A stretch of DNA of 64,000 nucleotides from a virus. The notes beneath the pieces were generated by a model, which was not told the origin of the DNA, did no database searches, and was given only the letters and a program-made list of their open reading frames with translations. Location of the stretch: positions 5,484-69,483 of IMG/VR virus record IMGVR_UViG_3300033156_000587. One strand, given 5' to 3'. Each line of letters starts with the position of its first letter. Positions within the stretch are counted from its first letter, which is position 1. Of the stretch, positions 21,535-44,294 are shown one piece after another. Made by a program: the position numbers and the translations under genes.

Positions 21535-23151
21535 CTAATCTACCGGCACCCGGACGCCGAACCCCCTGATGGAGTAAGACCGGATCTCACCCTTCTTGAT
21601 CGCTTGCCAGAGATCCGGGTCTTTCACGTGAGTTACCAAGATCCAAGAGCCCTTCGGGACAACTCGGCCATTGATCCTCAGGTCCTGAGGGGCGATATAG
21701 GACTCAACAGGAACGGCTTTGTTGTGATCCAAAGTCTTGATGTGCTTCCAGTCTATGAGCCGAGATTTCTCCATGAACCTGTGTGCAGCTTTCTCGATTT
21801 CCTCTTCAGGCGCTAAGTCGCCCTGAGAATCGAACCGGTCTGGTCGCAAGACCACGCCATAGACGAGTTGCTTTTCCTGATCAGCTTTAATTAATTCGGC
21901 GATCCACTGTTTCCTGATATTCTTGGGAAGGGGGAAGTTCGTCACGATGAGCTCATAGCGTTTCTTCGGAGCAGTAGACTCATGTCCTCCAGAATCCATA
22001 GGGCTCCCAAGTCTCACCCGTCTCACTTGGAATTTCTGAACTAACTTGCGCACCCTAGGCTCGTCTTTCAAGGTAAGAATCCACTTCCCTTTTAGTGTCT
22101 GGATCTTCTCGATCATCTGCTCCAAGTCATCCCACGACCATCGAAGGTCAGGGCGAGCAGCGCCTCGATTGGTCCCTGGGTATGGTGGGTCAAGGAAAAA
22201 GAATGTTTCGCGGCTATCAAAGCGCTTTGCAACCGTCCACCAATCAGCACAATAGATTTTTACTCCCTGCAAACGCTCGCGAACTTTTCGGAAATTGGGC
22301 TTGGCTGAATAGAACTTAGGGCGAGCCTTGTCCGGTGTCTCGCTCAGGTTGCCATAGGAAAGCTTCCTGAGATAAAGCCACTTATAGAGACGATCCAGTT
22401 TGGAGTCAGCGCCCATTTTCCTGACTTGCTCGAACGCCTCAATGCTCCAATCTTTAGCCTCAAGTTCTTCGATCTCCTGATCGGTCAGGCATTGAACCTG
22501 TTTGTAGGCAAATGCAATGTCGGGATCTCTATCAGCTAAAACTTCAATAGCACTCGATTCCCGTGGCTTCGCGAAGAAAACAGCGGCTCCACCTGCAAAG
22601 GGTTCAACATAAACCTTGTGATCTGGGATTAACTTCGTGATTAAGTGAGCCAGGTCGCGCTTCCCTCCTGGTGATCCGAAAAGCTGGCGAACGCCTTTCT
22701 CTAGACTTGGCCCTTCGCTTGGGCTGACCTCCCAAAATGGCGAGTCGGGAGCCTCGCGACGCATGAAGAGGACGTACGTCCTCTGCTTGCCCTTCAGGGC
22801 TAGCTTTGCAATATCCTTTTGTCTCTCCAGCCATTCCGCGGTCCCGTAATCGATCGTCTCCAGGAACGCGGGCGTCTCCTTCGTAGGGTTTGCAGGAGTC
22901 CCTGGTTTTAGTCTAACACGACCGCGGAGCGACATAACGTCAACTTTCTTACCATCCGCGGTCGTAACGTAGCGGTTTCGCATCGGCTTTTCATAGCCCG
23001 CAACAACCCCTCGCCTAGGATCTCCGTTCATCACGAGGTGCCAGAACTTGTCCGGCTGCTCTTCGATCCGGAGATCCCAGTGTTGGGAACTGGGTCCAAA
23101 GCGGATCACGATTTGGCCGCGCCACCAATGCCGCTGCAAAACGAACTTCAT
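21535..23151 (-). CDS. Fusion: LigD-phosphoesterase-like + Dam-type adenine methylase + XkdF-like prohead protease
   Basis: FVLQRH...HWDLR; SPGGK, YVEPFAGGA, FFLDPPY; QLVYGVVLRPD..DSQGD...ESYIAP...GSW...GEIRSYSIRG. Confidence 0.75.
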   Translation of the reverse strand: MKFVLQRHWWRGQIVIRFGPSSQHWDLRIEEQPDKFWHLVMNGDPRRGVVAGYEKPMRNRYVTTADGKKVDVMSLRGRVRLKPGTPANPTKETPAFLETIDYGTAEWLERQKDIAKLALKGKQRTYVLFMRREAPDSPFWEVSPSEGPSLEKGVRQLFGSPGGKRDLAHLITKLIPDHKVYVEPFAGGAAVFFAKPRESSAIEVLADRDPDIAFAYKQVQCLTDQEIEELEAKDWSIEAFEQVRKMGADSKLDRLYKWLYLRKLSYGNLSETPDKARPKFYSAKPNFRKVRERLQGVKIYCADWWTVAKRFDSRETFFFLDPPYPGTNRGAARPDLRWSWDDLEQMIEKIQTLKGKWILTLKDEPRVRKLVQKFQVRRVRLGSPMDSGGHESTAPKKRYELIVTNFPLPKNIRKQWIAELIKADQEKQLVYGVVLRPDRFDSQGDLAPEEEIEKAAHRFMEKSRLIDWKHIKTLDHNKAVPVESYIAPQDLRINGRVVPKGSWILVTHVKDPDLWQAIKKGEIRSYSIRGFGVRVPVD

Positions 23152-26100: not shown

Positions 26101-27356
26101 GAGTAAGGCTCAAGCGCCAGGTTCTTCCCGTTAAGCCAAGGGAGATCATGGACCGCGATCCTGACGGGCGGAAATGGCTTGGGAGGCTCGTTTGCGCTTC
26201 CCATCCAAGCCATCTCCCACCGTTCCTTCGGTTTTCCGCCTGGCTCCTGGAGCTCCATGAACTCAGTATCCAGGATATACTCGCCAGCCGGAAGCGCATC
26301 GGCTAGACCTGGGAAGACCTTCGTGCGATCGAATCCCTTGTCGGAGAATACTGCCAACCGATCGTCCCACCGATGGATATGTAGGCGGAATCCATCGAAC
26401 TTCTCCTGAACCAGAACAGGCGTGCCCCGTTCAACAGCCCTGGAGACCCACTTGTCCCAGAGGGTATCCTCGTCACCCGTGTAAAACTCACCGCCGGTGT
26501 GGTAGTGAGCGATCGGCTTCCCTGGCCGAATCTTGCGTGGGTCACGGACTAGCTCGGCTTTGTACATGAGCGCGGCGAATTCAGGCTCGTCCATATCTCG
26601 GATGCCTGAGTCCCTCCGCTTCCGAGCCACGAGGTCATACATCGGGGCATAAGCCCACGTCGGACCCTCAGACTCCGGGACCCAGTGGATGGGAAGATCT
26701 GTGAGCTCTGAGAACAAGCGTTCCAGCTTCAGCCTGGAACCCTCGGGCATGGATTCGATGCTGCCACGGATCACGAGATCCAGGTCATGAGGTTCTCGGT
26801 CCTTCGCGTAAACAAATCCACCGGTTACGGAGAGCCACTCGGGGACAATGACGATCTCATCAGGCAGCTTGTCGTGGAGCTCATTGACGCTGTCCTCATG
26901 AAACTCGGGGCTCTTCTTGAGTTCCAAGGCCTGCCGAATCACATCGGCGGGAGGAGAGACATTGAGGGAGTCCAGGTCATCCAGTGAGACCCACTTGGTC
27001 CTGAACGCCTCGAAACCGGCATGAGGCTCGCCTTCGCCAGCTTGGAAGACGAGCTGACGCATTCCCTTGTACTCGGGGAGCTCGCCGATTAATTCCCCGA
27101 GCTTGATGCCTGCCTCCTCTTCAGCTTCGCGCCGGGCTGCGTCCTCGGCCTCTTCGCCGTCTTCGATGTAACCGCCCGGAGGCGACCAGACCATAGGCTC
27201 GAAGCGGCGCTGGATAAGGAGGACTTTCCCATTCCTCACGGGATAGGCGAGGACGACCGGCCTACTAGGGCCAGCCGCCTGCTTTGCGGTGAGGACCAAT
27301 CCTGCGAAGACCGGGTGTCGGACCAGTTTTTCTAGGCTTTCCCACGCTACGGCCAT
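23148..27356 (-). CDS. 1402-aa multi-enzyme protein: NUDIX + NTase-like + ATP-dependent DNA ligase + family-4 UDG + phosphoesterase-like + adenine methylase
   Basis: GGYIEDGEEAEDAARREAEEEAG; HDLDLV; QEKFDGFR/EGAMLK; IGDGPG..E...PFTGPSG/YHPAAILR; FVLQLH..HGDLR; YVEPFAGPGA/LDPPW. Confidence 0.8.
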   Translation of the reverse strand: MAVAWESLEKLVRHPVFAGLVLTAKQAAGPSRPVVLAYPVRNGKVLLIQRRFEPMVWSPPGGYIEDGEEAEDAARREAEEEAGIKLGELIGELPEYKGMRQLVFQAGEGEPHAGFEAFRTKWVSLDDLDSLNVSPPADVIRQALELKKSPEFHEDSVNELHDKLPDEIVIVPEWLSVTGGFVYAKDREPHDLDLVIRGSIESMPEGSRLKLERLFSELTDLPIHWVPESEGPTWAYAPMYDLVARKRRDSGIRDMDEPEFAALMYKAELVRDPRKIRPGKPIAHYHTGGEFYTGDEDTLWDKWVSRAVERGTPVLVQEKFDGFRLHIHRWDDRLAVFSDKGFDRTKVFPGLADALPAGEYILDTEFMELQEPGGKPKERWEMAWMGSANEPPKPFPPVRIAVHDLPWLNGKNLALEPYSERLKALRELIPKPIKKGNYEIIVAETKKVNSRESLDQALKWASSQPGSEGAMLKYADFRYDPKTIAEVAKYKKAVEIDAMVIGWRKVPKGKPAGEHWTREEAFRNLRKQLAESNTYIFRVAIKDGNKLIPLESDGKLTAKDLKLDWDEKRQTWTGTDDPELWHMCPGWPHRKEGEYKYANTYAIEVEPKDLKCGAIVTVAPVKFRPFKKEDGTIGYAWMFPRAKNMKPRGSPVAQLKNVLRAFGMPEPEEKADKRVLPRGPEDASLVIIGDGPGEREEITGIPFTGPSGSFLRRMIERLGGDPHEILFANVFETRDAKLTEENVKERGAEVLKWIDSLPNVKVVLALSELAARALTALDKDIKWFRRHKGEFKTPKGIPIIVSYHPAAILRSGQTKSKLYRGLREDLKRALRMAKLVKAEIKAHNPNFYPDEDKHWKFVLQLHARGRSIHGDLRCQITPDILEGWTIALQQPGVIDEPILDLEDLRRWFKKPEAWKINWRTGEILPRKVITTIQGRKREVIRPGNLRAMPKKAEIAVDWLEEEGVTERPDPGERPPVGGTKRFPGVFLIVDKGEVEYGARKPWVFEYFLHGKRLRGRYLLRAVGRSGKGKTSKARISSDVTVLKQEDILPPGKPEEGGRAPFYWVLMKPEDQTPYVLSEDAMEKDWLPPKGISALPRKIREKVPKELRYWEVSGKEALERRRTLAERFEELTKEDNRIRPPFTAFGQLYRVWDRLIPLLPKSGWDVYVEPFAGPGALIWALPPARVEVLNDKDPVIVRLYRIIKGLTKEKIDKLKRFEWTLSKVTFDRLKREVDKSEPDDLKFLHRELYLRRASRQGRAGLSFRATLEGVEMNPFEKLWRARERLRNVKITKMDALEAIEKFDSPRTFFVLDPPWPGREDKYYPVDELNIPALVNKLTKIKGKFMLIIQGSQKDLAPLRKARFHEVRLRVFQPLSSIDRNVARYAYWSVFMNYDPKREGGFKP

Positions 27357-27504: not shown

Positions 27505-28422
27505 GTGCGGCGCTTTCTCATCACGGGTGGCGCTGGATCATTCGGTACCGCGTTTGCGAAGAGATTCGGTGACGACTACGACCTCTGTTGCTACTCCCGA
27601 GATCCCCTAAAGCACGACGCTCTGAAGCGGATCGTCCCCTCTGTAGACACCTTCGTTGGCTCCGTGACGAACAGGCGGAGGTTCGCGGAGATCCTGGGCT
27701 ACTGGCGGCCAGATGCCGTGATCCATGCCGCAGCTTTGAAGCACGTGATCGCAGGCGAAGATAATCCCCTTGAGTACCTGATGATCAATACGATTGGCTC
27801 CAGGGTTGTCGCCCATTGCTGTGGCATGGCTGGAGTGGAGCGTGTGCTCCTGATTTCCACGGATAAGGCCGTTGAGCCAGTTAATGTCTATGGCCTGACC
27901 AAAGCCCTCGCCGAAGCGATCTGGAAGGAGATGGCACGGCGGTACCCGCATACGAAGTTCATCATCATCCGCTTGGGCAATGTCCTGGACGCGCGGGGGT
28001 CCGTGCTCCGGCGGTGGATCGCGGCGAAGAAGGCGAATAAGCCTCTCGTAGCCAGGGTCCCGGCCCCTACCAGGTTTGTCCTCTCGCTTGACATGGCCGT
28101 GAATTTCGCCATGGAGGCACTGAAAATAGGAAGATCTGGGGACGTCCTCGTTCCCGCAGACCTGAAGGCCGTGGACATCCTTGACATGGCCTACGCGATC
28201 TCCAGTCACGTCATAACCATGCCTCTCTATCCCGCGGAAAAGCAGCACGAGGTCCTGGCTTCCTGGCGTGAGGGGAGAGAACGCGTTGGCCCATTCTATC
28301 GCGTGTTCCCCGATCCTGAGTCGAAGAATGAGACGCCGTACTCGTCGCGATACGCTCCCCTTATGGACCCTCGGTCAGTTGCCTTCGAGATGTTCAGACA
28401 TCTCTGGGAGGATGAGAAATGA
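27505..28422 (+). CDS. UDP-GlcNAc 4,6-dehydratase (PseB/FlaA1/CapD-like)
   Basis: ITGGAGSFG, HAAALKHV, ISTDKAV.P.N.YG.TK, RLGNV..ARGSV. Confidence 0.9.
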   Translation: MRRFLITGGAGSFGTAFAKRFGDDYDLCCYSRDPLKHDALKRIVPSVDTFVGSVTNRRRFAEILGYWRPDAVIHAAALKHVIAGEDNPLEYLMINTIGSRVVAHCCGMAGVERVLLISTDKAVEPVNVYGLTKALAEAIWKEMARRYPHTKFIIIRLGNVLDARGSVLRRWIAAKKANKPLVARVPAPTRFVLSLDMAVNFAMEALKIGRSGDVLVPADLKAVDILDMAYAISSHVITMPLYPAEKQHEVLASWREGRERVGPFYRVFPDPESKNETPYSSRYAPLMDPRSVAFEMFRHLWEDEK

Positions 28423-29240
28423 GACTGATAGCCGAGATCGGAACGAACTTTGACCCAGACGATCCCCTGGAAGCCCTGAAAACAGCTCAGGAGAATGGCG
28501 CGGATATCGTAAAGATTCAGCTCTTCCGGGCGAAAACTCTCTATGCCGTCCCAGAACTTCAGGAACGCGTCAGGCTGTTCGAGTTCAAACCGGAGTGGCT
28601 CAAGGACTGGGACGGCTGTCCCGTGTGGGCGACTGTGTTCGACATCGAGTTAGCCGAGCAAGCGCTACCTTATGTGAAGGGACTCAAGATCGCTTCCGGG
28701 GACCTTGTGTACCAGAAGATCGTGGAAAGCACGGCGAGGCTAGCGTCGGAGACAAACATCCCTCTAGCCTTGTCCACAGGAGCAGCGACGGAGGCCGAGA
28801 TCAAGCAAGCTCTAGACTGGGTCCAGCCATTTCCCGTAAAGGAACTGATCTTGTTTCAGTGCGTCTCAGTCTATCCCGCGGAACCGAAGGATTATAACCT
28901 GAGGGCGATCCTGCCTTTCCGAAAATACGTGGACACGATCGGGTTATCTGACCATACGACATCCTACATCACAGCTATGCTGGCGAGGGCCCTGGGATAC
29001 GAGGTCTTCGAGCGGCATTTTAAGTTCCAGGAAACCTGGCAAAAGCCGGTCACGCCGCCAGACTGGGGAGCTTGGGCATTCACGCCCAGCGCCTTTTGGG
29101 AGTATCGCTTCATGATCGAGTGGACCGACGAGATCCTGGGAACCGGGATGAAACGCGTTATGGAAGACGAGTCCGACGAGCGGGTCTGGGCTCGCAGAGG
29201 AAGTGATGGGAGGAGGCCTATCGATGTCGCAAGAGACTGA
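28419..29240 (+). CDS. NeuB/PseI-family nonulosonic acid synthase
   Basis: IAEIGTN, GADIVKIQ, KIASGD, LSTG, CVSVYP, GLSDHT, ERHF. Confidence 0.9.
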   Translation: MRLIAEIGTNFDPDDPLEALKTAQENGADIVKIQLFRAKTLYAVPELQERVRLFEFKPEWLKDWDGCPVWATVFDIELAEQALPYVKGLKIASGDLVYQKIVESTARLASETNIPLALSTGAATEAEIKQALDWVQPFPVKELILFQCVSVYPAEPKDYNLRAILPFRKYVDTIGLSDHTTSYITAMLARALGYEVFERHFKFQETWQKPVTPPDWGAWAFTPSAFWEYRFMIEWTDEILGTGMKRVMEDESDERVWARRGSDGRRPIDVARD

Positions 29241-30516
29241 TGTGAGAGGGAACCTGACTTGGGAGACCTTTCATTCCGTATTGCCCGCAGCGGGCACGTT
29301 CAGCAAGGACCCGCGAGCGTGGGGCATCCGGGACGATGAATCCATCGGCATGATCCGGCATGGGTACGGACCAATCGTGATGGACATCAGCGGGAAGTCC
29401 TATATCGACTGGGTTTCGGGCCTGGGAGCGAACTTGTTTGGACACAATCACCGGAACTGGATGAGCCGGTGGATGTATTACCTTCACGCCACGGGCCTGA
29501 TGACGTGCGCGTCCTTGCCGCACATGTACGAGTACACGCTCGCCATCCGGATCGCCGACTATGCTTGGCCCCACATCAAGGGAGCTGAGAAATGGGAAGA
29601 CGTCCAAGTCCGGTTCGGCAAGACGGGGTCGGATGTCCTGGACATGGCCGTGAGACTAGCGCGAGCGGCGAAGTCCAAGGATGTTGTACTCTTCACCGGC
29701 TATCACGGGTGGCACGATTGGACGATCTCAGCGACGCCGCCTGCTTGGGGCATCCCGCGCGGGTCGGGTCCTTTTGCCCAAAAGGTCAGCTTGAATGACC
29801 TGTCCCGTTGGCCGGAGGGAGGCCCGGCTGCGGTGGTCGTTGAGATCCCATTATCTTTTGATCCCAAGAAGTTCGATGAGATCCGCCAGTATTGCAACGC
29901 AACAGGAGCCCTCTTAATCTTGGACGAAGTGGTTACCGGGTTCAGGTACGGAGTCCCAGGCTACGTCGAGAGACTCCCCGTGAAGCCGGACATCATCTGC
30001 TTCGGGAAAGCCCTTGGGAACGGGCTTCCCATCTCTGCAATCGTAGGTCCCAAGGATTTGATGTCCTGGTTCGCCAGGACCGACCCCGTGTTTTGCTCTT
30101 CAACCGCGTTCGGCGACGTCGTCTCCCTGTCCGGTGGCCTAGCGACGCTAGACCTCGTCGCTGCGAGCGCCGATGGCATCCTAGGGCATATTCGGGACGT
30201 GGGAGCAGCCCTGATCCGGTCCCTCTCGGAAGTGTCGGAGCCTTACGACTTCTTCAGGATTGAGGGCGATCCAGAACGATCCCTCTGCGTCTTCGAGCGG
30301 GACGAGCAGAGAGCTCTGTTTATCCGCTGGATGATGGAAGCAGGGATCATGATGAATAGGCCGAATTTCCCAACGGTATCGCATACGAAGGCCGACGTGG
30401 AGATCACAGCAAGGGCTGCGGCTCATGTCTTGGAGCGAATCTCCAAGTTGGGCGAGTCTGAGCTTAAGGAACTTGGGAGCCGATACCATGCTCGCGTGCT
30501 CTTCCGAGACCGCTGA
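29224..30516 (+). CDS. Class III PLP aminotransferase (GSA-aminomutase-like)
   Basis: YIDW..GLG, FGKTGSD, GYHGWHDW, LILDEVVTGFR, FGKALGNG.P. Confidence 0.9.
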   Translation: MSQETDVRGNLTWETFHSVLPAAGTFSKDPRAWGIRDDESIGMIRHGYGPIVMDISGKSYIDWVSGLGANLFGHNHRNWMSRWMYYLHATGLMTCASLPHMYEYTLAIRIADYAWPHIKGAEKWEDVQVRFGKTGSDVLDMAVRLARAAKSKDVVLFTGYHGWHDWTISATPPAWGIPRGSGPFAQKVSLNDLSRWPEGGPAAVVVEIPLSFDPKKFDEIRQYCNATGALLILDEVVTGFRYGVPGYVERLPVKPDIICFGKALGNGLPISAIVGPKDLMSWFARTDPVFCSSTAFGDVVSLSGGLATLDLVAASADGILGHIRDVGAALIRSLSEVSEPYDFFRIEGDPERSLCVFERDEQRALFIRWMMEAGIMMNRPNFPTVSHTKADVEITARAAAHVLERISKLGESELKELGSRYHARVLFRDR

Positions 30517-30528
30517 GGAGGTTGAGGT

Positions 30529-31179
30529 ATGAAGAATATTATCCGAGTCCTTGATAGACCGGTGCAGGTTCTGGACATCGCGGAGGGTTGGGCATTCCCA
30601 GACCCCAGGTCTCTCCTGAAGAACCCTGAGAAGTCATACCGAGCTTGGAAGCTCTCGAACCTCAGCTCTTACCAAATAGGACAAGATGAAGTGCTCGTGT
30701 TCATGGGCGGGGAGAGGGATTACTCCAAGCCTGAGATCGAGGAGGAGGTCGAGCTTTCCCGGTTCGAAGTGAAGGGATACGGACCTCACTTACACAGGAT
30801 CGTGTATCAGACGCCACCGGAAAGTCCCCTTCGAGCCGGAGTCACGGTTAACGTCTCCGGATGGAGCTCGTTCCCTCCACATGGGTTTGAGCGAGATGGA
30901 AAGCACCCTGCAGGTTTCATGGAGATCTTCTACTTCATGATCGCGAAGGATAGCGACCATTGGGAAGGACCAGCGCAGGGTATCTTATTATCCGGTACAT
31001 TCGGAAGACCGTGGGTCAGGATCGTGAGAGACGGGTTGAGCTTGATCATCTACCCGGGCCTTCACGCTGTCACCGCGATGCCGGGGTGCAAGATCGGGTA
31101 CATCTGGGCTTACACCGCCGATGAGTTGCCGGACAAGACAATTGACGGGAAGGCAGGAAGGTATCGTGAGGACGTGTAG
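30529..31179 (+). CDS. IolB/KduI-like cupin isomerase
   Basis: GWSSFPPH...EIFYF...GLHAVTAMPG...YIW. Confidence 0.65.
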   Translation: MKNIIRVLDRPVQVLDIAEGWAFPDPRSLLKNPEKSYRAWKLSNLSSYQIGQDEVLVFMGGERDYSKPEIEEEVELSRFEVKGYGPHLHRIVYQTPPESPLRAGVTVNVSGWSSFPPHGFERDGKHPAGFMEIFYFMIAKDSDHWEGPAQGILLSGTFGRPWVRIVRDGLSLIIYPGLHAVTAMPGCKIGYIWAYTADELPDKTIDGKAGRYREDV

Positions 31180-32056
31180 AGGACGTTTGCTGGCCGAGAA
31201 CAACGGGCTCCGGGTGATCGATTGCGAGGTCTGTGGTTTTGCCCACCTTGAGTCCGGTGGCGCGGCAGAGATCGAGTACATGGCGGGTGCATTCCAGGAT
31301 GATAACTGGTTCGAGAAGGAGCGCCAGGAACACGTCGCGGGGCTTTGGGACTCCTGCTATGAGTTCCAGTGGCGTATCATGAAGCAAACCGAGCCGTTCC
31401 TGGACTTCGGCTGCGGCGCGGGCTGGTTCATGTGGTACGTCAGGAGGACGTCCATCCCGATGCCGATCGAGTGCTATGGCGCAGAGATCGCGCCGATCCC
31501 TCACGAGTACAGGCCAGTGAACGTCAAGCACTTGATATACCATCCTGCCGCTCCCGAGGTGAACCAGCGGTTTCCAGCGGTGAGACTGTCCCTGGTTCTG
31601 GAACACATCGAGACGCCTAGAGGATTTCTCTTGACCCATCTTGAGTTCTGGAAGCCCCGCCGGATCTTAATCATCGTGCCAAACGAGTTCAACCCGCTAC
31701 AGAGGAAAGTGGGAGGCTCCTGGTTTGTCTCTCACTGGCATTGGAACTACTTCACGCCTCGGTCGCTGACCAACTTGCTTGCGAGATTTGGTTATCGCCC
31801 AACGTTTCAGGGCGCGGGCTTTCCGATGGAACTGTTCATCCTGCTAGGGTTCGATTACAGAAAGGATGAGGAACTCGGAAAGAGGTGTCACTTAACGCGG
31901 TTAAGGTTGGAGAAACGCGTGGGCTGGAGAATCTTCCACGTCTACAGTCTGCTTCACCGCCTCCTCGGCTGGGGACGGGAGATGATCTATCTTTTCGAGA
32001 TCGAGCGAAAGCCGATCAAGATTCCGTCTACCCGGGTGCCACTTGCTCTTGCATAG
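31166..32056 (+). CDS. SAM-dependent methyltransferase with Zn ribbon
   Basis: CEVCG, LDFGCGAG, VLEHIETP, VPN, HWNYF. Confidence 0.85.
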   Translation: MRTCRGRLLAENNGLRVIDCEVCGFAHLESGGAAEIEYMAGAFQDDNWFEKERQEHVAGLWDSCYEFQWRIMKQTEPFLDFGCGAGWFMWYVRRTSIPMPIECYGAEIAPIPHEYRPVNVKHLIYHPAAPEVNQRFPAVRLSLVLEHIETPRGFLLTHLEFWKPRRILIIVPNEFNPLQRKVGGSWFVSHWHWNYFTPRSLTNLLARFGYRPTFQGAGFPMELFILLGFDYRKDEELGKRCHLTRLRLEKRVGWRIFHVYSLLHRLLGWGREMIYLFEIERKPIKIPSTRVPLALA

Positions 32057-32081
32057 AGAATTGCCGCGGGGGGAAGATTCA

Positions 32082-32858
32082 ATGATCATAGGGATCTATT
32101 CTGCAAGCCCGGAATATCACGGGTTTGGTCACTACTACCGCTGCCTCGGACTGGCCCAAGTTTTAGCTGCGCAACGTCACACCGTATTCTGGAAGGACAG
32201 CCTGATGCCGGACTTCAACCTGGGACAAGATCTCGGGTTCGAGCTCGATTGGCTGATCGTGGATCATCCTGACGAGACCGTGATAAACCAGCTCGATGCA
32301 CGGGCGAAACGAAGGGCTTACCTCCATGGAAATTCCGAGCTCACGAGGCCGATGAATGAAGACGCTTGGGACCTGATCGTGGTCCAGGGAGTGAGATACG
32401 GAGTGAGGAACATTAACGCCTCTCGCTGGCTAGTTGGACCACAGTACGCTTTGATCCGGCCTGAGATCTCGAACTTAGTCGGCATCTTCAGGCCTCCAAA
32501 GGAGAATAAAGTCCTAGTCTACCCGGATGATCTCCTGGACCTAGTGCCCGATGGTTGGGTTGTCGCATACCCGAACGATTTCCACGTGGACTTCGGGATC
32601 GCTCGATTCGGCATGATTTCCTTGGAACTCGCTGCGCTTGGCATTCCTCAGGCGATCATTTACGATACGATGGTCGAGCCGACTGCCGTCTACCTGAAAA
32701 AGACAGGAGCTGCGACCTTAATCAAGCGAGAGGTCGCAGAGAGGGACAGAGATGTGATTAAGCGGGAGGTCGAACGAATCGAGGTCCCGTTTAAGCCTCC
32801 GATCGACGGCCTCGGCTGCTGGAGACTTGCACACGAGCTGGAGTTGAGGGCGACATGA
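32082..32858 (+). CDS. PseG/SpsG-like UDP-sugar hydrolase
   Basis: GFGHYYRCLGLA, LIVD, GPQYALIR, ELAALGIP, IDGLG. Confidence 0.75.
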   Translation: MIIGIYSASPEYHGFGHYYRCLGLAQVLAAQRHTVFWKDSLMPDFNLGQDLGFELDWLIVDHPDETVINQLDARAKRRAYLHGNSELTRPMNEDAWDLIVVQGVRYGVRNINASRWLVGPQYALIRPEISNLVGIFRPPKENKVLVYPDDLLDLVPDGWVVAYPNDFHVDFGIARFGMISLELAALGIPQAIIYDTMVEPTAVYLKKTGAATLIKREVAERDRDVIKREVERIEVPFKPPIDGLGCWRLAHELELRAT

Positions 32859-33520
32859 GTTGCATCATCGTTCTCGGCTTGCCTCGGTCCGGCACGAGCA
32901 TGGTCTCCGGGGTCCTTCACCACCTCGGGGTCTTCATGGGTAAGGAGGACAAGTTCACGCCTCCGGATGAGTGGAACCCTCTAGGGTACTTTGAGAATTT
33001 GGAGATCACGGGTCTCCTGGTCCGAGCTAGCAGGACTGCGACAACCAGGGAACTCATGGAAGCTGCCGCGTCTCGCGGGGTCTTTCCGGTTCATGCGGAC
33101 ATTTCCCATGAGCTGGAGCGCCGGATAAGGGCGATAGAGGCGAGTCACGAGATCTGGGGATTCAAAGATCCCAGGCTCTTGCTTCCCTTTTTCTTCGAGG
33201 CCTTTACTGCCCTTGTGAAGTCTGACATCAAGCTGATCGTAACGACCCGCGGGCTTCTCCGCGTGAAGGAGTCGATCGGGGCTAAGCTGAAGAAGACCGA
33301 GAAGCAATCCTTCGATGAGACCGTGGACCTAGCCGTGAATCATCTCGCGCTGAGGTTAGTGGACGTCCTAGGACGAGTCCCGGTGCCTGTCCTGGTCGTG
33401 CAGTTTGACTCTTTGATTGACGACCCGAAACGGAAAGTCCGCGAGATCGCCGAGTTCGTGGGAGTCGAGGTGACACAGAAGGCGATATCATTCCCGAATC
33501 CGGCTTTCCGGAGGTTCTGA
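32855..33520 (+). CDS. Sulfotransferase family protein
   Basis: VLGLPRSGTSMV, NPLGYFEN, WGFKDPR. Confidence 0.85.
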   Translation: MSCIIVLGLPRSGTSMVSGVLHHLGVFMGKEDKFTPPDEWNPLGYFENLEITGLLVRASRTATTRELMEAAASRGVFPVHADISHELERRIRAIEASHEIWGFKDPRLLLPFFFEAFTALVKSDIKLIVTTRGLLRVKESIGAKLKKTEKQSFDETVDLAVNHLALRLVDVLGRVPVPVLVVQFDSLIDDPKRKVREIAEFVGVEVTQKAISFPNPAFRRF

Positions 33521-34719
33521 TGGCTAAGTGGGTTTGGCTTATCGGCGGTGGGGTCATGCAGTATCCCATGCTGAGGAAGATCCGGGAACGTGGATACAAG
33601 AGCCTAGTCACAGATGGGAACCCCGAATGCAGATGCGCTTGGGAAGCTGACGCGTTCTTCCGCGTCAGCACGTATGACATCAAGGGACACCTGGAACTCG
33701 CGTCGAAGCTGAAGGATCTTGATATCGCGGGAGTCCTGACCGTTGCCGCAGACGTGGGGCCGACGGTGTCCGCGGTAGCCCACGTTCTCAGTCTCCCAGC
33801 CTGCTCCCTGGCGTCCGCGATAGCGGCGCGCGATAAAGTGAGTATGCGAGTGTCTACCGCGCTTTTGTCTAAACATCCGGTTTGGATGGCACTGCCAGCT
33901 ACAAGAGCTGAAGCCGCGTGGCATTCCTGGGACACCTGGGCCCGGAGCAAGGGAATCCCATCGCTGCCGTGCGTGGTGAAAGCGCCTGACAACCGAGCGT
34001 CCCGCGGAATGACCGTCGTAAGACGGCCGGAGGACATGACACCCGCGGTCCGGAAGGCGGCGAGTTCCGCGATCCAGCGAAAGGACACGGTCCTGATCGA
34101 GGAATTCCTCGAAGGGGAAGAGTACGCGATCGACACGTTCATCGTGGATGGAAAGGCTCGTATGGTGAACATCGCGAAGCGGATCTTCCATGAACCCGGG
34201 ATCGAGGCAGGCCACATAAACCCGGGAGCATTCGATCCCGAGATGGAAAGGATCGCGACGGAATATGCTGAAGCACTCGGTGTGGATCAGGGCCCGTTTA
34301 AGCTGGATCTCGTGAAACATCCGAGATACGGCTGGTGTGTCCTGGAAACAGCCACGAGGCTGTCCGGAGGATTCGATCACATGTGTACTGCGGTTATCGG
34401 CCCGGGGAAGGATATCACGGGCCTGATGCTTGACTTCGCGTTGGGCCTTCCCTTTGATGGGAGCAAGCTGGAGTCGAAGATCGGGAAATATGCCGCGTGC
34501 TATGCGCCGGTCTTCGAGCCAGGTACGATCCTTGGATATCTGTACCATGGATCTCCCGAGCTTCCAGACGGCGTAATCGTCGTGAACAGGCGTGAGATCC
34601 CACCGCTCGAAACGTCTGCAGACAGGCCTATATTCGTGATCGAGACCGGTGACTCGGAGGAAGAGGCATGGGAGAAAGCCAAGGAGATCGCCTCAGGCTT
34701 AGAGCCGATGTACGCATAG
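33520..34719 (+). CDS. ATP-grasp ligase
   Basis: DKVSMR, PCVVKAPDNRASRG, IEEFLEGEE, ETATRLSGG. Confidence 0.85.
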   Translation: MAKWVWLIGGGVMQYPMLRKIRERGYKSLVTDGNPECRCAWEADAFFRVSTYDIKGHLELASKLKDLDIAGVLTVAADVGPTVSAVAHVLSLPACSLASAIAARDKVSMRVSTALLSKHPVWMALPATRAEAAWHSWDTWARSKGIPSLPCVVKAPDNRASRGMTVVRRPEDMTPAVRKAASSAIQRKDTVLIEEFLEGEEYAIDTFIVDGKARMVNIAKRIFHEPGIEAGHINPGAFDPEMERIATEYAEALGVDQGPFKLDLVKHPRYGWCVLETATRLSGGFDHMCTAVIGPGKDITGLMLDFALGLPFDGSKLESKIGKYAACYAPVFEPGTILGYLYHGSPELPDGVIVVNRREIPPLETSADRPIFVIETGDSEEEAWEKAKEIASGLEPMYA

Positions 34720-35714
34720 GGATCGTGATCACGGCGAGGATGGACTCAGAGAGGCTTCCAGGGAAAGTGCTCGCTGAGATAGCCGGGAAACCGTTGCTAG
34801 GACACCTTGTGGAGAGATATGCCCGGGTCGGGAAAGTAGTCGTTGCCACATCCGATGATCCAAGTGATGACCCGATTGCGACGTGGGCAGAGCGTCACCT
34901 TGTTCCTTGTTTCCGCGGGAGCAAGGAAGATGTTACAGACAGGATCTGGGGCGCGATCAAGGCATGGCTGAGCGACTGCGACTTTGTGATGCGAGGCCTG
35001 GGAGATTGTCCGTTCCCGGAGACGATGTTCATTACGAGAGCTGCATTCGTGATGGACGCGATGGACGCGGACATGTTCCTTTGGATGCTCCCACCGTGGG
35101 TTTGGCCCGTGTATGGAGCGAGGGAGTTCCCGATCCGGACCTCACTCTGGGAGGCGATGAACCAACTCGCGACGGGAGACGAGCGGGAACACCCCGATTT
35201 GTACCTGCATCGGCATAGGAAGGACATCAAAATCGCGTATCATGAGCCTCCGCCTCCGGACTATTTTAGACCGCATAGACTGGAGATCGATTACCCGGAA
35301 GACCTCGAAATGTTGAGGCGGCTCGTCAAGGAGTTCGACGGCCGCTGGCCGACCCTGATCGAAGCTTTGGATGTCCTGGACGCGAACCCGAAAATCGCGC
35401 TCATCAATGCGAACAGGGAAGAGAGAACGGGTCCATACGCGTCCTATTCCCAAGAGGACCGGGACAAGTGGGCCCAGGCCCAGCGGGGCAAGCCCGTCGT
35501 AACCTGGGATAACCGGATATGGCGACCAAAGAAGAACGAGAAACCAATCTTTTGTTCCGTAGGGACTTGCCTCATCGGGTATTATCACGGTGGGTGGCTA
35601 AGGACAAAAGAGGGGCACGCGATTAAGGAAGGTCGGCTCGCGTGCCCCTGTGGAGCGGGAAGATTCTGGCGTGCTAAGGCGATCGACTTGCGCGAAGGAT
35701 CTCGACCGGTATAG
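34668..35714 (+). CDS. SpsF/PseF-like cytidylyltransferase
   Basis: ARMDSERLPGKVL..I.GKPL, VATS, FRGS.EDV, GDCP, REH, EIDYPED. Confidence 0.85.
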   Translation: MGESQGDRLRLRADVRIGIVITARMDSERLPGKVLAEIAGKPLLGHLVERYARVGKVVVATSDDPSDDPIATWAERHLVPCFRGSKEDVTDRIWGAIKAWLSDCDFVMRGLGDCPFPETMFITRAAFVMDAMDADMFLWMLPPWVWPVYGAREFPIRTSLWEAMNQLATGDEREHPDLYLHRHRKDIKIAYHEPPPPDYFRPHRLEIDYPEDLEMLRRLVKEFDGRWPTLIEALDVLDANPKIALINANREERTGPYASYSQEDRDKWAQAQRGKPVVTWDNRIWRPKKNEKPIFCSVGTCLIGYYHGGWLRTKEGHAIKEGRLACPCGAGRFWRAKAIDLREGSRPV

Positions 35715-38033: not shown

Positions 38034-38708
38034 ATGAAGAGGATCTTAGTATTTGGAGCAACCGGGAATCTTGGAAGGGCGCTTCGGGAAGAAGCGCGGT
38101 GGCGAAGCTGGGAATTCCGGGGCATTGCGAGGAACCCGGGAGATTTCAGCGACACTCGGAAAGCGAACGCTACTCATTGGACGAAAATAAGCCGGGTTCT
38201 CTCAGACGAGGCTCCATTTGACCTCGTGGTCTTCGCCCAGGGCATCCAGCGAAGGGTCGGGATCTGGGACGCAGGTCCCCATGATTTCGACATCCTGGCG
38301 GCGAATCTGGACGGCTCTTTGATCTCGACGATTTTGTTAGTACGATACAGGAGGTTGAACCAGGGAGCCTTATTAGTCTATTGCTCCTCGATCCAAGCCG
38401 CGGCTCCCAGGGGTGGCCGGTTCCTGTACGCGGTAGCGAAGGCTGGAGTGGAAGCTCTAGCGAGGGCGGTCACCGCGGAGACCGGCGGCTTGGTCCGAGG
38501 TGTAGCCTTGAGACTCGGCCAGTTCGAGAACACGATGAAAGGGATCGAGTTCTCCGAGGCCGAGCGGGAGAGACTGGAAGAGCGGACGTTGATGGGCTTC
38601 ATCCCGGAGCGGGAGATCGCGAAGTTTATCTTCGACCTGTACGATGCTCGCCACATTGCAGGATGTGTAATCGACTACGAAGGCGGGCATCTCCTGAACA
38701 TCTGGTGA
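38034..38708 (+). CDS. Short-chain dehydrogenase/reductase
   Basis: GATGNLG, SSI, YAVAKAG. Confidence 0.85.
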   Translation: MKRILVFGATGNLGRALREEARWRSWEFRGIARNPGDFSDTRKANATHWTKISRVLSDEAPFDLVVFAQGIQRRVGIWDAGPHDFDILAANLDGSLISTILLVRYRRLNQGALLVYCSSIQAAAPRGGRFLYAVAKAGVEALARAVTAETGGLVRGVALRLGQFENTMKGIEFSEAERERLEERTLMGFIPEREIAKFIFDLYDARHIAGCVIDYEGGHLLNIW

Positions 38709-38716
38709 GGCGAAAC

Positions 38717-38830
38717 GTGTCCAATCACGGTGGTCTCAGGTACATCGTCTGGGTTATCTTGGTGATTTGCGTGGTCCTGATGATCTCTGGATGGGTTACC
38801 CTGGCAATCTCGCTAAAGTACCTTAACTGA
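38717..38830 (+). CDS. Small membrane peptide
   Basis: GTG start; YIVWVILVICVVLMISGWVTLAI hydrophobic helix. Confidence 0.4.
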   Translation: MSNHGGLRYIVWVILVICVVLMISGWVTLAISLKYLN

Positions 38831-38853
38831 GGAATCTTGGGGCCGAATCTCGG

Positions 38854-39000
38854 GGGCCCGTAGCTCAATTGGCAGAGCACTATTGCCGTTGCCGGGTCTT
38901 GCCTCGAAGGGATGTGCACCATGTAGGCAGACCGGGGCCGGACGGTGACGGTTATCCACTTGAAATGGAGAGGTTGCGGGTTCGAGTCCCGCCGGGCCCA
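38854..39000 (+). ncRNA. Y1: tRNA-shaped RNA with a Ro-binding Y stem inserted (circularly permuted YrlA-like)
   Basis: Acceptor GGGCCCG/CGGGCCC-A, D arm GCTC-AATTGGCA-GAGC, T arm GCGGG-TTCGAGT-CCCGC, plus an insert of about 75 nt carrying CTTGCC and GGGCCGGA..GGTTAT. Confidence 0.75.
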
Positions 39001-39025
39001 CTCAAGCCGAAAGGGACTAAGGGCA

Positions 39026-39202
39026 GTGAAAAGCAACAAGGCGGAGAGGCTGGCATTAGCCTTTGCCGCGGCATTAGTACCCGGCACGGTGGTAGCGGCC
39101 GTCTTCCTAGACGAACTAGGCATCCGTATCTTCGGTATGATCGCAATCATTACGCTGGGTGGACTAGTTATTTTAGCCCTAGCTACACCGAACAAGGGCT
39201 AG
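39026..39202 (+). CDS. Small two-TM membrane protein
   Basis: 58 aa with two hydrophobic helices, between Y1 and Y2. Confidence 0.45.
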   Translation: MKSNKAERLALAFAAALVPGTVVAAVFLDELGIRIFGMIAIITLGGLVILALATPNKG

Positions 39203-39305
39203 TCGGGCCGGATGCACACGGTTATCGAGTCTGGCCCTCGGGGAGGCTGAAGGTCTCCTTAGCCGGTTCGAGTCCGGTATAGCCGTGTGCAAATCCTTGC
39301 CCGAC
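39202..39305 (+). ncRNA. Y2: Y RNA with a full tRNA cloverleaf
   Basis: GTCGGGC/GCCCGAC terminal stem, CGGA opposite ATCCTT, TGCACACGGTTAT/ATAGCCGTGTGCA stem, T arm GCCGG-TTCGAGT-CCGGT. Confidence 0.8.
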
Positions 39306-39317
39306 CTTGAAAGCGAC

Positions 39318-39377
39318 GCGGGCCGGATCGTATGGGTTACCCTGCTAAGGTATCTCCCATGCGAGCAACTCGCCCGC
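39318..39377 (+). ncRNA. Y3: minimal Y RNA
   Basis: GCGGGC/GCCCGC, CGGA, TCGTATGGG/CCCATGCGA, apical TACC-CTGCTAA-GGTA. Confidence 0.75.
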
Positions 39378-39398
39378 TTCTTTGGGAATAGATCTTGC

Positions 39399-39459
39399 GC
39401 GGGCCGATGCACGAGGGTTATCAGCCGCGTTGGGTTGGCCTCGTGCAAAACTTGCCCGC
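39399..39459 (+). ncRNA. Y4: minimal Y RNA
   Basis: GCGGGC/GCCCGC, CGA, TGCACGAGG/CCTCGTGCA, GGTTAT, CTT bulge. Confidence 0.75.
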
Positions 39460-39478
39460 TCGTGCCAACGGACGAGAC

Positions 39479-39578
39479 GCGGGCCGGAGTGTGAGGGTTA
39501 TCGGTTACTCAGGTTCGAGTCCTGAATCCCAGGCGGGGAAACCCGTGCTGGGATGCTCCTCACACGACCCTTGCCCGC
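39479..39578 (+). ncRNA. Y5: YrlA-like Y RNA with T arm
   Basis: GCGGGC/GCCCGC, GTGTGAGG/CCTCACAC, TCAGG-TTCGAGT-CCTGA, GAAA-capped stem. Confidence 0.8.
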
Positions 39579-39608
39579 TCTTTTATCCTCATGAAAGGAG
39601 GGTCGGAG

Positions 39609-41261
39609 ATGGTTAACTACAGGAAGCATTTCTCTACGCGGGAGACTCCACAGAGCGAGCCGATCCCTGGCCGAGCTATGGCTCGGAACAATGCCGGTGG
39701 ATTCGCGTTTCAGATCGACAAGTGGATGCGGCTTCGGAGGTTCTTAATCCTCGGCTCTGAGGGCGGGACGTACTACGTCTCCGAGCACAAGCTCACGATC
39801 GATAATGCCAGGAATGTCCTAGCTTGCATCCGAGAGGATGGGAAGCGAGCAGTGCAAGAAATCGTGGGAGTCTCCGAATCCGGTCGCGCCCCGAAGAACG
39901 ATCCCGCGCTATTCGCCTTGGCGATGGCGATGAGCGAAGGAGATCTGGAAACGCGTCGAGAAGCGTTCAGCGTGTTCCCGCGAGTGGCGAGAACCGGATA
40001 TCACTTATTCCGGTTCGCCGAGTACGTCGAGGGTTTCCGCGGCTGGGGTCGTGGCTTGAGACGGACGATAGGCCGGTGGTACTTGGGTAAAGACCCCAAC
40101 ATGCTCGCTTACCAGGTGACCAAGTACCAACAACGTGAGGGCTGGAGCCATCGGGATATCCTGAGGCTCGCGCATCCCAAGACCGCGTCCAAGGCTCATA
40201 ACGCGATCTTCCGCTGGATCACCCAGAGCGAGATCAGCGACGATCTCCCGGATCTGATCGTCGGGCTGGAGAAGGCCCGAAAGGCACAGAATGAACAGGA
40301 GATCGTGAAGCTGATCGAGGAGTATGGTCTGCCTTGGGAGGCGATCCCGACGGAATTCTTGGGTTCTGCACGCGTCTGGGAAGCTCTGTTGCCGAGGCTT
40401 CCTATGACCGCGCTGCTCCGGAATTTGGCCCGGATGACCGCGAACGGGCTACTTGTCCCGATGAGCGATGCTGTAAAACTCGTGACCGAGCGGATTACAA
40501 ACGAGGAGGCGTTGAGGAAGGCACGAGTGCACCCGATCCAGGTCCTGAGCGCGCTCATAACTTACCAGCGTGGTCGAGGGGTCCGAGGGCGGTTGACGTG
40601 GGAGCCGGTGGCGAGGGTCATTGATGCCCTGGATGCCGCGTTCTACCTGTCCTTCGGGAACGTGGAGCCGATCGGGAAGCGGGTGGTCCTCGCGTTGGAC
40701 GTATCCGCGTCCATGGCTACCGGGATGATTGCTGGCGTCCCGGACCTGACGCCTCGTGTAGCTGCGGCCGCTATGGCGATGGTAACCGCGCGCGTGGAGC
40801 CAGAGCATGTCATCGTCGCGTTTACTGGGGAGATGGTCCCGCTGGACATCTCGCCTCGGGAACGGCTGGATGACGTGCTGGAGAAGGTTGACAGGCTCGA
40901 CTTCGGCCCCACGGACTGCTCGTTGCCCATGATGTGGGCTCTCGGGTATCAGCCCAAGGTAGCGAAAAACTGGTGGTCCTGGAGGAGCGCAGGCTACAGG
41001 AAGGTACGGAATGAAGTCGTCCGCGCCGATGCGTTTCTGATCTATACCGACAGTGAGACCTGGTTCGGGAAGATTCACCCGTTCCAAGCGTTACAGAAAT
41101 ATCGGCATGAGACCGGGATCGATGCGAAGCTCGTGGTCGTCGCCATGACCGCAACGGAGTTCTCCATTGCCGATCCCGGCGATCCCGGGATGTTGGACGT
41201 CGTGGGATTCGATACTGTGACTCCCAATCTGATCGCAGACTTCGTGAGAGGGGAGATCTGA
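39609..41261 (+). CDS. rsr: Ro60/TROVE domain RNA-binding protein (Rsr-like)
   Basis: NNAGGFAF, RLRRFLILGSEGGTYY, KYQQREGWSHRD, MTALLRNL, vWA DVSASM, TDCSLP, YTDSETW, MLDVVGFD. Confidence 0.95.
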   Translation: MVNYRKHFSTRETPQSEPIPGRAMARNNAGGFAFQIDKWMRLRRFLILGSEGGTYYVSEHKLTIDNARNVLACIREDGKRAVQEIVGVSESGRAPKNDPALFALAMAMSEGDLETRREAFSVFPRVARTGYHLFRFAEYVEGFRGWGRGLRRTIGRWYLGKDPNMLAYQVTKYQQREGWSHRDILRLAHPKTASKAHNAIFRWITQSEISDDLPDLIVGLEKARKAQNEQEIVKLIEEYGLPWEAIPTEFLGSARVWEALLPRLPMTALLRNLARMTANGLLVPMSDAVKLVTERITNEEALRKARVHPIQVLSALITYQRGRGVRGRLTWEPVARVIDALDAAFYLSFGNVEPIGKRVVLALDVSASMATGMIAGVPDLTPRVAAAAMAMVTARVEPEHVIVAFTGEMVPLDISPRERLDDVLEKVDRLDFGPTDCSLPMMWALGYQPKVAKNWWSWRSAGYRKVRNEVVRADAFLIYTDSETWFGKIHPFQALQKYRHETGIDAKLVVVAMTATEFSIADPGDPGMLDVVGFDTVTPNLIADFVRGEI

Positions 41262-43460: not shown

Positions 43461-43490
43461 CCTTCCCTTTGAAAGATGGGAGACGGAAAG

Positions 43491-44294
43491 ATGATCAATC
43501 AAGTGCTAGTGCGACAACTGCTAGACGATCGGTTCCGGATTCAGCGGGACAGGATACGCTGTGGGAATCGGATCAGTGCGATCCTACGCGGATCTGATAC
43601 CGCGGATCAAAGGGTACTGGAATACCTATACGAGCAACACCAAAGGCTTCTAGAAGACGAGCAGCGGGCCACGGAACGGCTGTTGGATGAATTGGACGGG
43701 GTACCTATCTTAGATGCCGCGTGCGGTGTGAAGGGAATAGGCCGAGTTTTAGCCGCTCAGGTGATCGCGGAAATCGGTGATATTGGCCGGTTCCCCACGG
43801 TCTCCAAGTTGTGGCGGTATTCTGGTTACGGCTTGGCTCCGTACTGGGTCAACAAGGATGGTCGCGTCATGGCCCCCAAGGTCGGGCGAAAATGGGAACG
43901 CGTAGATGGGAAATTGATCTCCGTGAAAGCCGAGGTACAGCCCGAAGAGGGTTGGGAGTTGAAGGTGATCCCGGATCGGAAGGTAAAGGGATTCCTGCTC
44001 CCGTACAACTCACGGTTGAAACATATCATCCATATCGTGGCTCAGTCGCTCCTAAAGAGTAACAGTCCATACAGAGAGATTTATGATGATGCGATCGCCT
44101 CTTATTCTCCCGGCTTACGCAGGATCGTCCGGCACATGCGGGCGATGCGGAAGATGAAGAAAATCTGGCTTTCTCATCTTTGGGAGGTGTGGCGAAGGCT
44201 GGAGGGGTTGCCGGTTCGGAAGGCTTGGATTTTCGAGCATGGAGGGCATCAGGATTACTTGGACCCGCAGGCGTTCGGCTGGCTGATAGATTAA
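43491..44294 (+). CDS. Nop-domain RNA-guided DNA-binding protein, TasA-like (IS110-related, no RuvC)
   Basis: IQRDRIRCGNR coiled coil, VKGIG..LAA..IAEIGDI.RF.TVSKLWRYSG, YNSRLK, YREIYD, AMRKMKKIWLSHLW..WR..EGLP; no DEDD domain; array follows. Confidence 0.8.
   Translation: MINQVLVRQLLDDRFRIQRDRIRCGNRISAILRGSDTADQRVLEYLYEQHQRLLEDEQRATERLLDELDGVPILDAACGVKGIGRVLAAQVIAEIGDIGRFPTVSKLWRYSGYGLAPYWVNKDGRVMAPKVGRKWERVDGKLISVKAEVQPEEGWELKVIPDRKVKGFLLPYNSRLKHIIHIVAQSLLKSNSPYREIYDDAIASYSPGLRRIVRHMRAMRKMKKIWLSHLWEVWRRLEGLPVRKAWIFEHGGHQDYLDPQAFGWLID

Follow-up and report, generated by a model that had tools for sequence, protein, structure and literature searches.

Y RNAs are thought to have descended from tRNAs. 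The Y RNA-like RNA YrlA (RF02553; PMC4201824; 10.1101/312249), in the parts of Chen et al. 2014 and Wang et al. 2018 that are cited throughout this text, carries a GNCGAA-type Ro60-binding stem, the motif GGUUAYC, a V arm, a T arm, an acceptor stem and a D arm, and has a Ro60 gene as its neighbor; all of these traits are shared by the element reported here. The modules of YrlA run Y5'-V-T-acceptor (closed)-D-Y3' and the RNA ends in the Y stem, whereas our element ends in the acceptor stem. Wang et al. 2018 term YrlA RNAs "circularly permuted tRNAs", and the published origin model derives them from dimeric tRNA transcripts (10.1101/312249). RNase P cuts the acceptor loop of M. smegmatis YrlA, CCA is added in vivo, and both pieces remain on Rsr (PMC4201824). 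The cut RNA, a tRNA mimic on Ro60 whose 7-bp acceptor stem is open and ends in CCA, is the closest functional precedent for our element. However, its Y stem is open and it consists of two fragments of 82 and 65 nt that pairing holds together (PMC4201824), while the Y stem of the RNA described here would be closed and its single chain could dispense with an internal cut.

Other described systems share single traits with the element. Similar to it, Deinococcus radiodurans Yrn1 (RF01053) is a Y RNA with tRNA-like D and then T elements (PMC4201824), but the ends of Yrn1 form its Ro60-binding stem. In the tRNA-like domain of tmRNA, other structure takes the place of the anticodon arm, alongside a T arm and an open acceptor stem that bears CCA (PMC4201824, 10.1101/312249); in contrast, our element has no mRNA module, pseudoknots or SmpB link. 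The circularly permuted tRNA genes of algae and archaea demonstrate that tRNA modules tolerate permutation at the level of the gene (10.1101/312249). These genes are processed back to ordinary tRNAs, whereas our element is unpermuted, bears an extra protein-binding hairpin and is probably non-decoding. In the open literature, taken without supplements and two Y RNA reviews, we came across no account of Y RNAs laid out in tRNA order, and a prior mention is possible; the string "permut" is absent from the cited part of Chen et al. 2014 (PMC4201824).

A tRNA-order element upstream of a phage Ro60 gene

The window, i.e., the whole 64-kb stretch of DNA analyzed here, belongs to a virus record of 69,483 bp (~69% complete by CheckV) with siphovirus-type structural genes (tape measure, capsid, XkdF protease) and a sugar-modification cluster. 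Its Ro60/Rsr gene, the product of which is the presumed protein partner, has relatives in 352 phage records, every one below 60% identity. Four conventional Y RNAs sit in tandem between the element and this gene (39202-39583). In each, a 5' side of the form GGGCCGGA...GGUUAYC pairs with a 3' side CUUGCCC, and the Y 3' strand of our element is patterned like the 3' strands of these four RNAs. The Deinococcus Y RNA model RF01053 reached 16.8 bits, below its cut-off, at 39476-39583 and had no significant match to the element, while a tRNA-Phe(gaa) called by ARAGORN at 39218-39287 is a miscall of conventional Y RNA 1. Pfam detected no CCA-adding enzyme, RtcB or PNPase family in 65 of the 80 called window ORFs of this ~69% complete record. 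All features are collected in Table 1.

Table 1. Features of the element and of the Ro60 locus in the window
Feature	Position	Strand	Remarks
Orphan Y 5'-strand-like motif GGGGCCGAAUCUCGG (GGGGC-C-GAA-UCUCGG)	38839..38853	+	abuts the acceptor stem
tRNA-order RNA element	38854-39000	+	layout acceptor5'-D-Y3'-loop-Y5'-small arm-T-acceptor3'
Acceptor stem, 5' strand GGGCCCG	38854..38860	+	pairs 7/7 with 38993-38999; UA follows
D arm GCUC-AAUUGGCA-GAGC	38863..38878	+	with G18 G19; ACUAUUG follows
Y stem, 3' strand	38886..38906	+	distal CCGUUGCCG, GGU, CUU, terminal GCCUCG
Loop closing the Y stem	38907..38932	+	26 nt
Y stem, 5' strand	38933..38951	+	terminal CGGGGC, bulged C38939, GGA, distal CGGUGACGG; candidate Ro60-binding helix
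Small arm UCCA-CUUGAAA-UGGA	38955..38969	+	4 pairs, 7-nt loop; GAGGUU follows
T arm GCGGG-UUCGAGU-CCCGC	38976..38992	+	
Acceptor stem, 3' strand CGGGCCC	38993..39000	+	with discriminator A39000; CUC next, no encoded CCA
Conventional Y RNA 1	39202..39305	+	ends form the Y stem, T-arm-like hairpin inside; -57.9 kcal/mol, z -5.86
Conventional short Y RNA 2	39314..39380	+	RF01656 (stem-bulge RNA) 32.4 bits against cut-off 38; z -3.33
Conventional short Y RNA 3	39395..39462	+	fold z -3.16
Conventional Y RNA 4 with T-arm-like hairpin	39475..39583	+	RF01656 22.9 bits, below cut-off; z -4.42
Ro60/Rsr gene, 550 aa	39609-41261	+	presumed protein partner; Pfam TROVE 3.7e-49, vWA_Ro60 8.8e-61

Several further features of the window are recorded here. 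Two short hydrophobic ORFs flank the element on the + strand (38717-38830 and 39026-39202; 37 and 58 aa); they have GTG starts with purine-rich stretches upstream and, judged by eye, may encode small membrane peptides. A 1402-aa protein (23151-27356, - strand) unites NUDIX, ATP-dependent DNA ligase, uracil-DNA glycosylase and D12 adenine methyltransferase domains. The sugar genes (27505-35711, + strand) comprise a Polysacc_synt_2 dehydratase, NeuB, an aminotransferase, a methyltransferase, a sulfotransferase, an ATP-grasp protein and a cytidylyltransferase, and look like a pathway for the synthesis and modification of a nonulosonic acid. Downstream of the Ro60 region, 43476-44294 (+ strand) gives a weak match to an IS110-family transposase (PF02371, 1.3e-6).

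The element is a complete tRNA frame with a 69-nt hairpin between the D arm and the small arm, and this hairpin consists of the two halves of a Y stem in swapped order. We confirm that this observation, with which an earlier sequence-only reading had begun, is real: every part of the tRNA frame proposed there is present, and RNAfold agrees. The hairpin (38886-38951) fills most of the 76-nt stretch that follows the D arm (38879-38954). Its halves can form nine distal and six terminal pairs, with two additional G-U pairs possible beside the bulged C. GGTTATC adjoins the Y 5' strand on its 3' side (UUAUC after CGGUGACGG), and the strand itself fits the GNCGAA-type motif of Chen et al. 2014, in whose naming the small arm corresponds to the "V" arm, with the Y stem standing in for the anticodon stem (PMC4201824). 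The loop of the small arm resembles an anticodon loop, with U at the 33 position and AA at 37-38; in alignment A3, T83 is invariant and A87/A88 are nearly so. G18 G19 of the D arm show no variation in A3 or in A2, a MAFFT alignment that is not structure-aware in the hairpin and is superseded by A3 and by the model-based alignments.

Compared with the established families, the element has (I) the cloverleaf of a tRNA, in which the acceptor stem (7 bp), the D arm and the T arm succeed one another in tRNA order, and no 5-bp anticodon stem with 7-nt loop directly after position 26, the one anticodon-like arm lying beside the T arm; (II) the nearness of a Y RNA to a Ro60/Rsr gene, which lies 609 nt downstream on the same strand, and the bulged helix CGGGGC-C-GGA with CUU-GCCUCG, present though not in the register of the minimum free energy (MFE) fold, and no Ro60-binding helix built from the RNA ends, since a 26-nt loop closes the helix and it is the acceptor stem that contains the predicted ends; and (III) the tRNA-like elbow of YrlA (G18 G19, T-loop UUCRA) with the Y stem at the position of the anticodon stem, but not its succession of T arm, loop-closed acceptor stem and D arm, the D arm here preceding the T arm.

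Searches with existing tools reported other frames or nothing at this position. ARAGORN calls a tRNA-Ser(tga) at 38929-39001, an artefact in which the Y 5' strand is taken as a sham acceptor stem and D arm. The Rfam tRNA match at 38928-39000 (32.9 bits) shares this false frame and its misuse of the Y 5' strand, has 3/7 acceptor pairs non-standard, and is all that Rfam returns at the element at gathering score. Over the whole virus record, the YrlA model RF02553 reaches at best 12.7 bits against a cut-off of 69, on the T arm only, and at E up to 10 it has no match in 38300-39800; in the same interval, a permuted-tmRNA model gives a weak, sub-threshold match (17.1 bits against 47). Megablast against named phages found no match.

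RNAfold predicts the tRNA frame with the long inserted hairpin at -66.1 kcal/mol (z -2.09; 5/200 shuffles as good); with flanks, the z-score is only -0.84. In the MFE structure the register of the hairpin is shifted, in that the linker sequence AGGCAGACC pairs with GGUCUUGCCU and buries the CUUGCC strand. When the Y-type fold is enforced, the energy is -63.4 kcal/mol, i.e., 2.7 kcal/mol worse than the MFE, corresponding to ~8% of the ensemble. The reversed Y halves can pair with one another, as had been proposed, and the class covaries in this helix (see below), but the MFE of the window copy uses the shifted register.

Relation to YrlA and recurrence of the layout

A distant blastn search gave short matches only. 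The best of them (87.9% over 57 nt) hit the gene of prophiGD43A-5 that is annotated as "tRNA-Thr" and adjoins the Ro-like gene of that Mycobacterium phage. This GenBank feature, tRNA-Thr(tgt) (L019:2488-2566, gene 51), is in fact the 5' part of a YrlA, comprising Y strand, small arm and T arm. Several more YrlA units, all unannotated, are located between gene 51 and the Ro-like gene. prophiGD43A-5 and the Gordonia phages Sixama and Cashline carry canonical YrlA units with the order Y5'-GGUUAYC-small arm-T arm-closed acceptor-D arm-GCUAAAAC-Y3'. When our element is aligned with these actinophage YrlA RNAs, its 5' half falls on their 3' halves, and the 3' half falls on their 5' halves (mean column identity 71% and 74%, respectively); its small arm is also present in them. 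Since the halves align in swapped position, the element is composed of the same modules in the other circular order, namely that of a tRNA, and the circular-permutation relation to YrlA that had been proposed from the window is borne out. The accompanying idea is that opening of the 26-nt linker would restore a YrlA-like order. In many relatives, however, the loop of the hairpin measures ~3 to 12 nt where read (e.g., GCAA or TTCG; long in a few), so that linker opening is probably not the design.

The Rfam tRNA model yielded 118-128-nt matches with the same layout upstream of Ro60 in two related viral contigs. A covariance model, R1, was built from ten tRNA-order elements of other loci, with the window left out. 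R1 matches the window end to end at 38854-39000 with 86.8 bits (E 2.6e-20), the sole match in 64 kb, and the pairs that the window can form when aligned to it number 7/7 in the acceptor stem, 4/4 in the D arm, 7/8 in the distal Y helix, 6/6 in the Ro helix, 3/3 in the small arm and 5/5 in the T arm. Loci for the wider search were the best 80 of at least 584 bacterial relatives and the best 80 of 288 viral relatives. Over 92 viral sources, R1 gave 124 matches, among which the window ranks 12th; 69 are at least 100 nt long, and 37 of these have 7/7 acceptor pairs. Over 80 bacterial Ro60 loci it gave 322 matches, the best 150 of which were aligned (85 of at least 100 nt, 78 of these with 7/7 acceptor pairs). 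Matches in tandem YrlA arrays of named phages (L019, L020, L182, L184 and L185) were rejected as junction artefacts, with 4-6/7 acceptor pairs where counted. The strict members are 17 distinct viral elements in 15 loci and 70 distinct bacterial elements in 39/80 loci, and these 87 relatives have perfect, covarying acceptor stems. Among the sources of the bacterial loci are Chloroflexota, Myxococcota and Armatimonadota, as well as the isolate Desulfonema magnum 4be13.

Ordinary tRNAs are among the sequences of alignments A4 and A5, both of which are fitted to the model, and inflate the acceptor, D and T counts; read with this bias, 95.4% of cells are paired in the bacterial set, compared to 70.5% in shuffles and 41-47% when slid, and 92.1% against 61.1% in the viral set with the window. 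In the bacterial set, 32/33 pairs are changed on both sides, and all helices covary, including all seven acceptor pairs. The two Y helices, the counts of which are uninflated because they were drawn from long elements only, are paired in 88.2% (distal Y helix) and 90.5% (Ro helix) of cells, and both covary. The hairpin motif UUGCCC with GGGC-C-GR is kept on both strands across phyla. A stricter D..Y5'..T scan (8/25 with seven acceptor pairs) was set aside and its histogram left unused, because spurious D-arm matches triggered the exclusion of most true elements, the window among them.

A motif scan assigned a tRNA order to 21 and a YrlA order to 18 of 94 viral loci (both 1, unclassified 56), and to 34 and 18 of 80 bacterial loci (both 4, unclassified 32). 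The ten named cultured phages comprise seven YrlA-order and three unclassified loci, with no locus of tRNA order or of both. The two layouts are rarely co-located though each occurs in ~20-40% of loci, which suggests that tRNA-order and YrlA-order RNAs replace each other. In our best reading, the tRNA-order Y RNA is a widespread variant in phages and several bacterial phyla for which we found no description.

Other arrangements of Y stems and tRNAs were observed at these loci. One Desulfonema magnum element (L110:1662-1783) carries the Y hairpin within its D loop (TAGCTCAG...hairpin...TGGTAGAGC) instead of behind the D arm, yet another site for the same module. The loop of a Y stem at L002:4963-5110 holds a complete, normally ordered tRNA-Ile(gat) (ARAGORN), a third way in which Y stem and tRNA are joined. 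Upstream of Ro60 at L018:2270-2960, short Y RNAs take turns with ordinary genes for tRNA-Val, tRNA-Ala and tRNA-Gly, as if the tRNAs punctuated the processing of the Y RNAs. Ordinary tRNA genes flank Ro60 in 37/80 bacterial loci in the motif scan (L101-L180), and several loci, e.g., L118, L154, L168 and L131, contain many R1 matches of tRNA length within the 6.6 kb fetched.

Acceptor end, maturation and alternative readings

CCA directly follows the discriminator in 11/87 members compared to 12/96 neighboring true tRNAs, and in nine further members (0/96 tRNAs) an 8-bp stem is followed by one base and CCA. The class thus encodes CCA at the same rate as true tRNAs of its neighborhood. In the Desulfonema magnum 4be13 locus (L110), all five of the elements read end in N-CCA. 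Position -1 pairs with 73 in 71/87 members and in 43/96 ordinary tRNAs. G-1:C73, a hallmark of tRNA-His, is present in 35/87 members compared to 3/96 ordinary tRNAs. The window copy has a 7-bp acceptor stem with G-1 unpaired opposite A73 and no CCA; the lack of CCA fits the rule, as most tRNAs and elements at Ro60 loci encode none. The sequence-only reading had offered a Y RNA with a real acceptor end as one of its options, and the 87 perfect, covarying acceptor stems, the tRNA-like CCA rate and the CCA ends in Desulfonema magnum support it. At L031 and L004, a -10-like hexamer is visible by eye just upstream of the acceptor 5' end, accompanied by a TTGACA -35 in L031.

From the anatomy of the element, its homology to YrlA, the covariation in ~87 relatives, the linkage to Ro60 and the encoding of CCA in the class, we consider it fairly probable (roughly 0.7) that 38854-39000 specifies a tRNA-order Y RNA that would be matured by RNase P and CCA addition and docked on Ro60 via a closed hairpin. 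The single chain would adopt the L shape of a tRNA body, in which D and T arms are joined by an open acceptor stem of 7 bp and by a small arm of anticodon-like or variable type, and the long hairpin with its bulged, putative Ro60-binding helix would stand in place of the anticodon stem. Host RNase P would free the RNA from a longer + strand transcript at 38853/38854, the 3' end would be trimmed, and CCA would be added by the host enzyme. The phage Ro60 may then dock on the hairpin, and the tRNA-shaped body may act as the effector, a role also proposed for the body of YrlA, here combined with an acceptor end that is live.

The element could instead be a decayed or rearranged leftover, in which two YrlA-type units lost parts and acc5'-D-Y3' came to lie beside Y5'-arm-T-acc3' by accident, non-functional as such. 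The orphan Y 5' motif directly upstream, the unusually long closing loop (26 nt), the non-Y register of the MFE and the lack of an encoded CCA and of a -1:73 pair are in line with such a history. However, all helices are intact, the copy ranks 12th of 124 R1 matches, and decay would not be expected to keep every acceptor, D and T pair. Furthermore, the layout recurs with covariation in 87 distinct elements and is therefore selected for, and we regard a leftover as improbable.

No + strand promoter is predicted near the element, so that it is probably co-transcribed. This would also suit a frame that is a tRNA-like processing signal only, recruiting RNase P and RNase Z to the operon transcript, with a hairpin that has no Ro60 role; the alternation of tRNAs and short Y RNAs at L018 looks like punctuation of this kind. 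A mere spacer, however, would not keep a specific Y motif on both strands of the hairpin across phyla, which renders this explanation decidedly improbable.

The orphan motif upstream of the acceptor stem had been noted as a second 5' strand for the same Y 3' strand. The motif is real, and it can make ten pairs with 38892-38905. Among 30 distinct viral members it is clear only in the window and absent from the other 29. For 38830-39010, the fold with the upstream motif has -61.9 kcal/mol, compared to -74.6 for the MFE and -71.9 for the Y-type fold with acceptor stem. We therefore rejected this pairing as the main fold, as it is 10-13 kcal/mol worse than the tRNA-frame folds and not conserved. 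GGBCCGRA has 19 + strand matches in the window, five of them inside the Y region; from the 14 outside it in ~63 kb, the chance of a match in the 20 nt before the acceptor is, by simple arithmetic, ~0.4%. Since a chance match at 38839-38853 is unlikely, the motif is possibly a relic of a rearranged or neighboring Y unit, or a leader. The two alternative pairings of the CUUGCC strand in the window, together with the low chance of an upstream GGBCCGRA, could also point to a switch, in which the upstream motif or the linker competes for the Y 3' strand and Ro60 binding awaits leader removal or another trigger. Against this stand the energy of the upstream alternative and the fact that neither competitor is conserved, the motif being confined to the window and the loops short in many relatives, and we judge a switch very improbable.

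Finally, the small arm, with UGA as its anticodon, could belong to a true tRNA gene from whose transcript the Y hairpin would be removed like an intron to give a decoding tRNA. This reading would account for the perfect tRNA frame, for the tRNA-like encoding of CCA in the class and for the 7-nt loop with its U33-like and A37/A38-like bases, but is highly improbable, given that the small arm has four pairs in the window and 0 or 1 of 3 model pairs in several strict or near-strict members, that at L004:2482-2604 and L015:2633-2768 the hairpin lies within an extended stem with no anticodon loop, that the insert is placed at the 26/27 junction, to our knowledge not a tRNA intron site, and that it bears a conserved Ro60 motif beside a Ro60 gene.

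Two layouts and the origin of Y RNAs

To follow the two layouts through the Ro60 family, a FastTree tree was built from 183 Ro60 sequences (one of 184 was dropped as too short or broken). Layout labels cover 87 loci (50 tRNA-order, 37 YrlA-order), with five two-layout and 91 unlabelled loci left out. On this tree the layout changes at least 14 times, compared to 24-34 times in 200 label shuffles, from which it follows that the layout is inherited yet has switched repeatedly. A tandem duplicate of either layout holds the other layout at its junction; at L004, the junction of two adjacent tRNA-order units can, as judged by eye, form a closed acceptor hairpin. The suggestion that the element is an evolutionary intermediate on the way from tRNA to YrlA does not follow from these data, as the class is stable and widespread, not a transitional one-off, and at least 14 switches separate the layouts.

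More tentatively, and in our estimate with odds somewhat below even, the tRNA order may constitute a second Y RNA topology of bacteria and phages, about as common as YrlA at such Ro60 loci, with tRNA-like maturation that would tether Ro60 to a live acceptor end, which may be chargeable or recognized by tRNA enzymes (G-1:C73 in 35/87 members), and may represent a missing link between tRNAs and Y RNAs.

The class also has a practical side for annotation, where such genes are called as short false tRNAs, i.e., the tRNA-Ser of this window and the half YrlA of prophiGD43A-5 given as tRNA-Thr. Chen et al. 2014, in the part cited here, report few YrlA candidates in delta-proteobacteria (PMC4201824). 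The tRNA-order class may explain why YrlA candidates are scarce in some lineages, and the bacterial matches found here include Myxococcota and Desulfonema. The class makes the origin of Y RNAs testable through tandem copies, the folds of their junctions and the at least 14 switches on the Ro60 tree, and it predicts Ro60 RNPs with a genuine CCA end.
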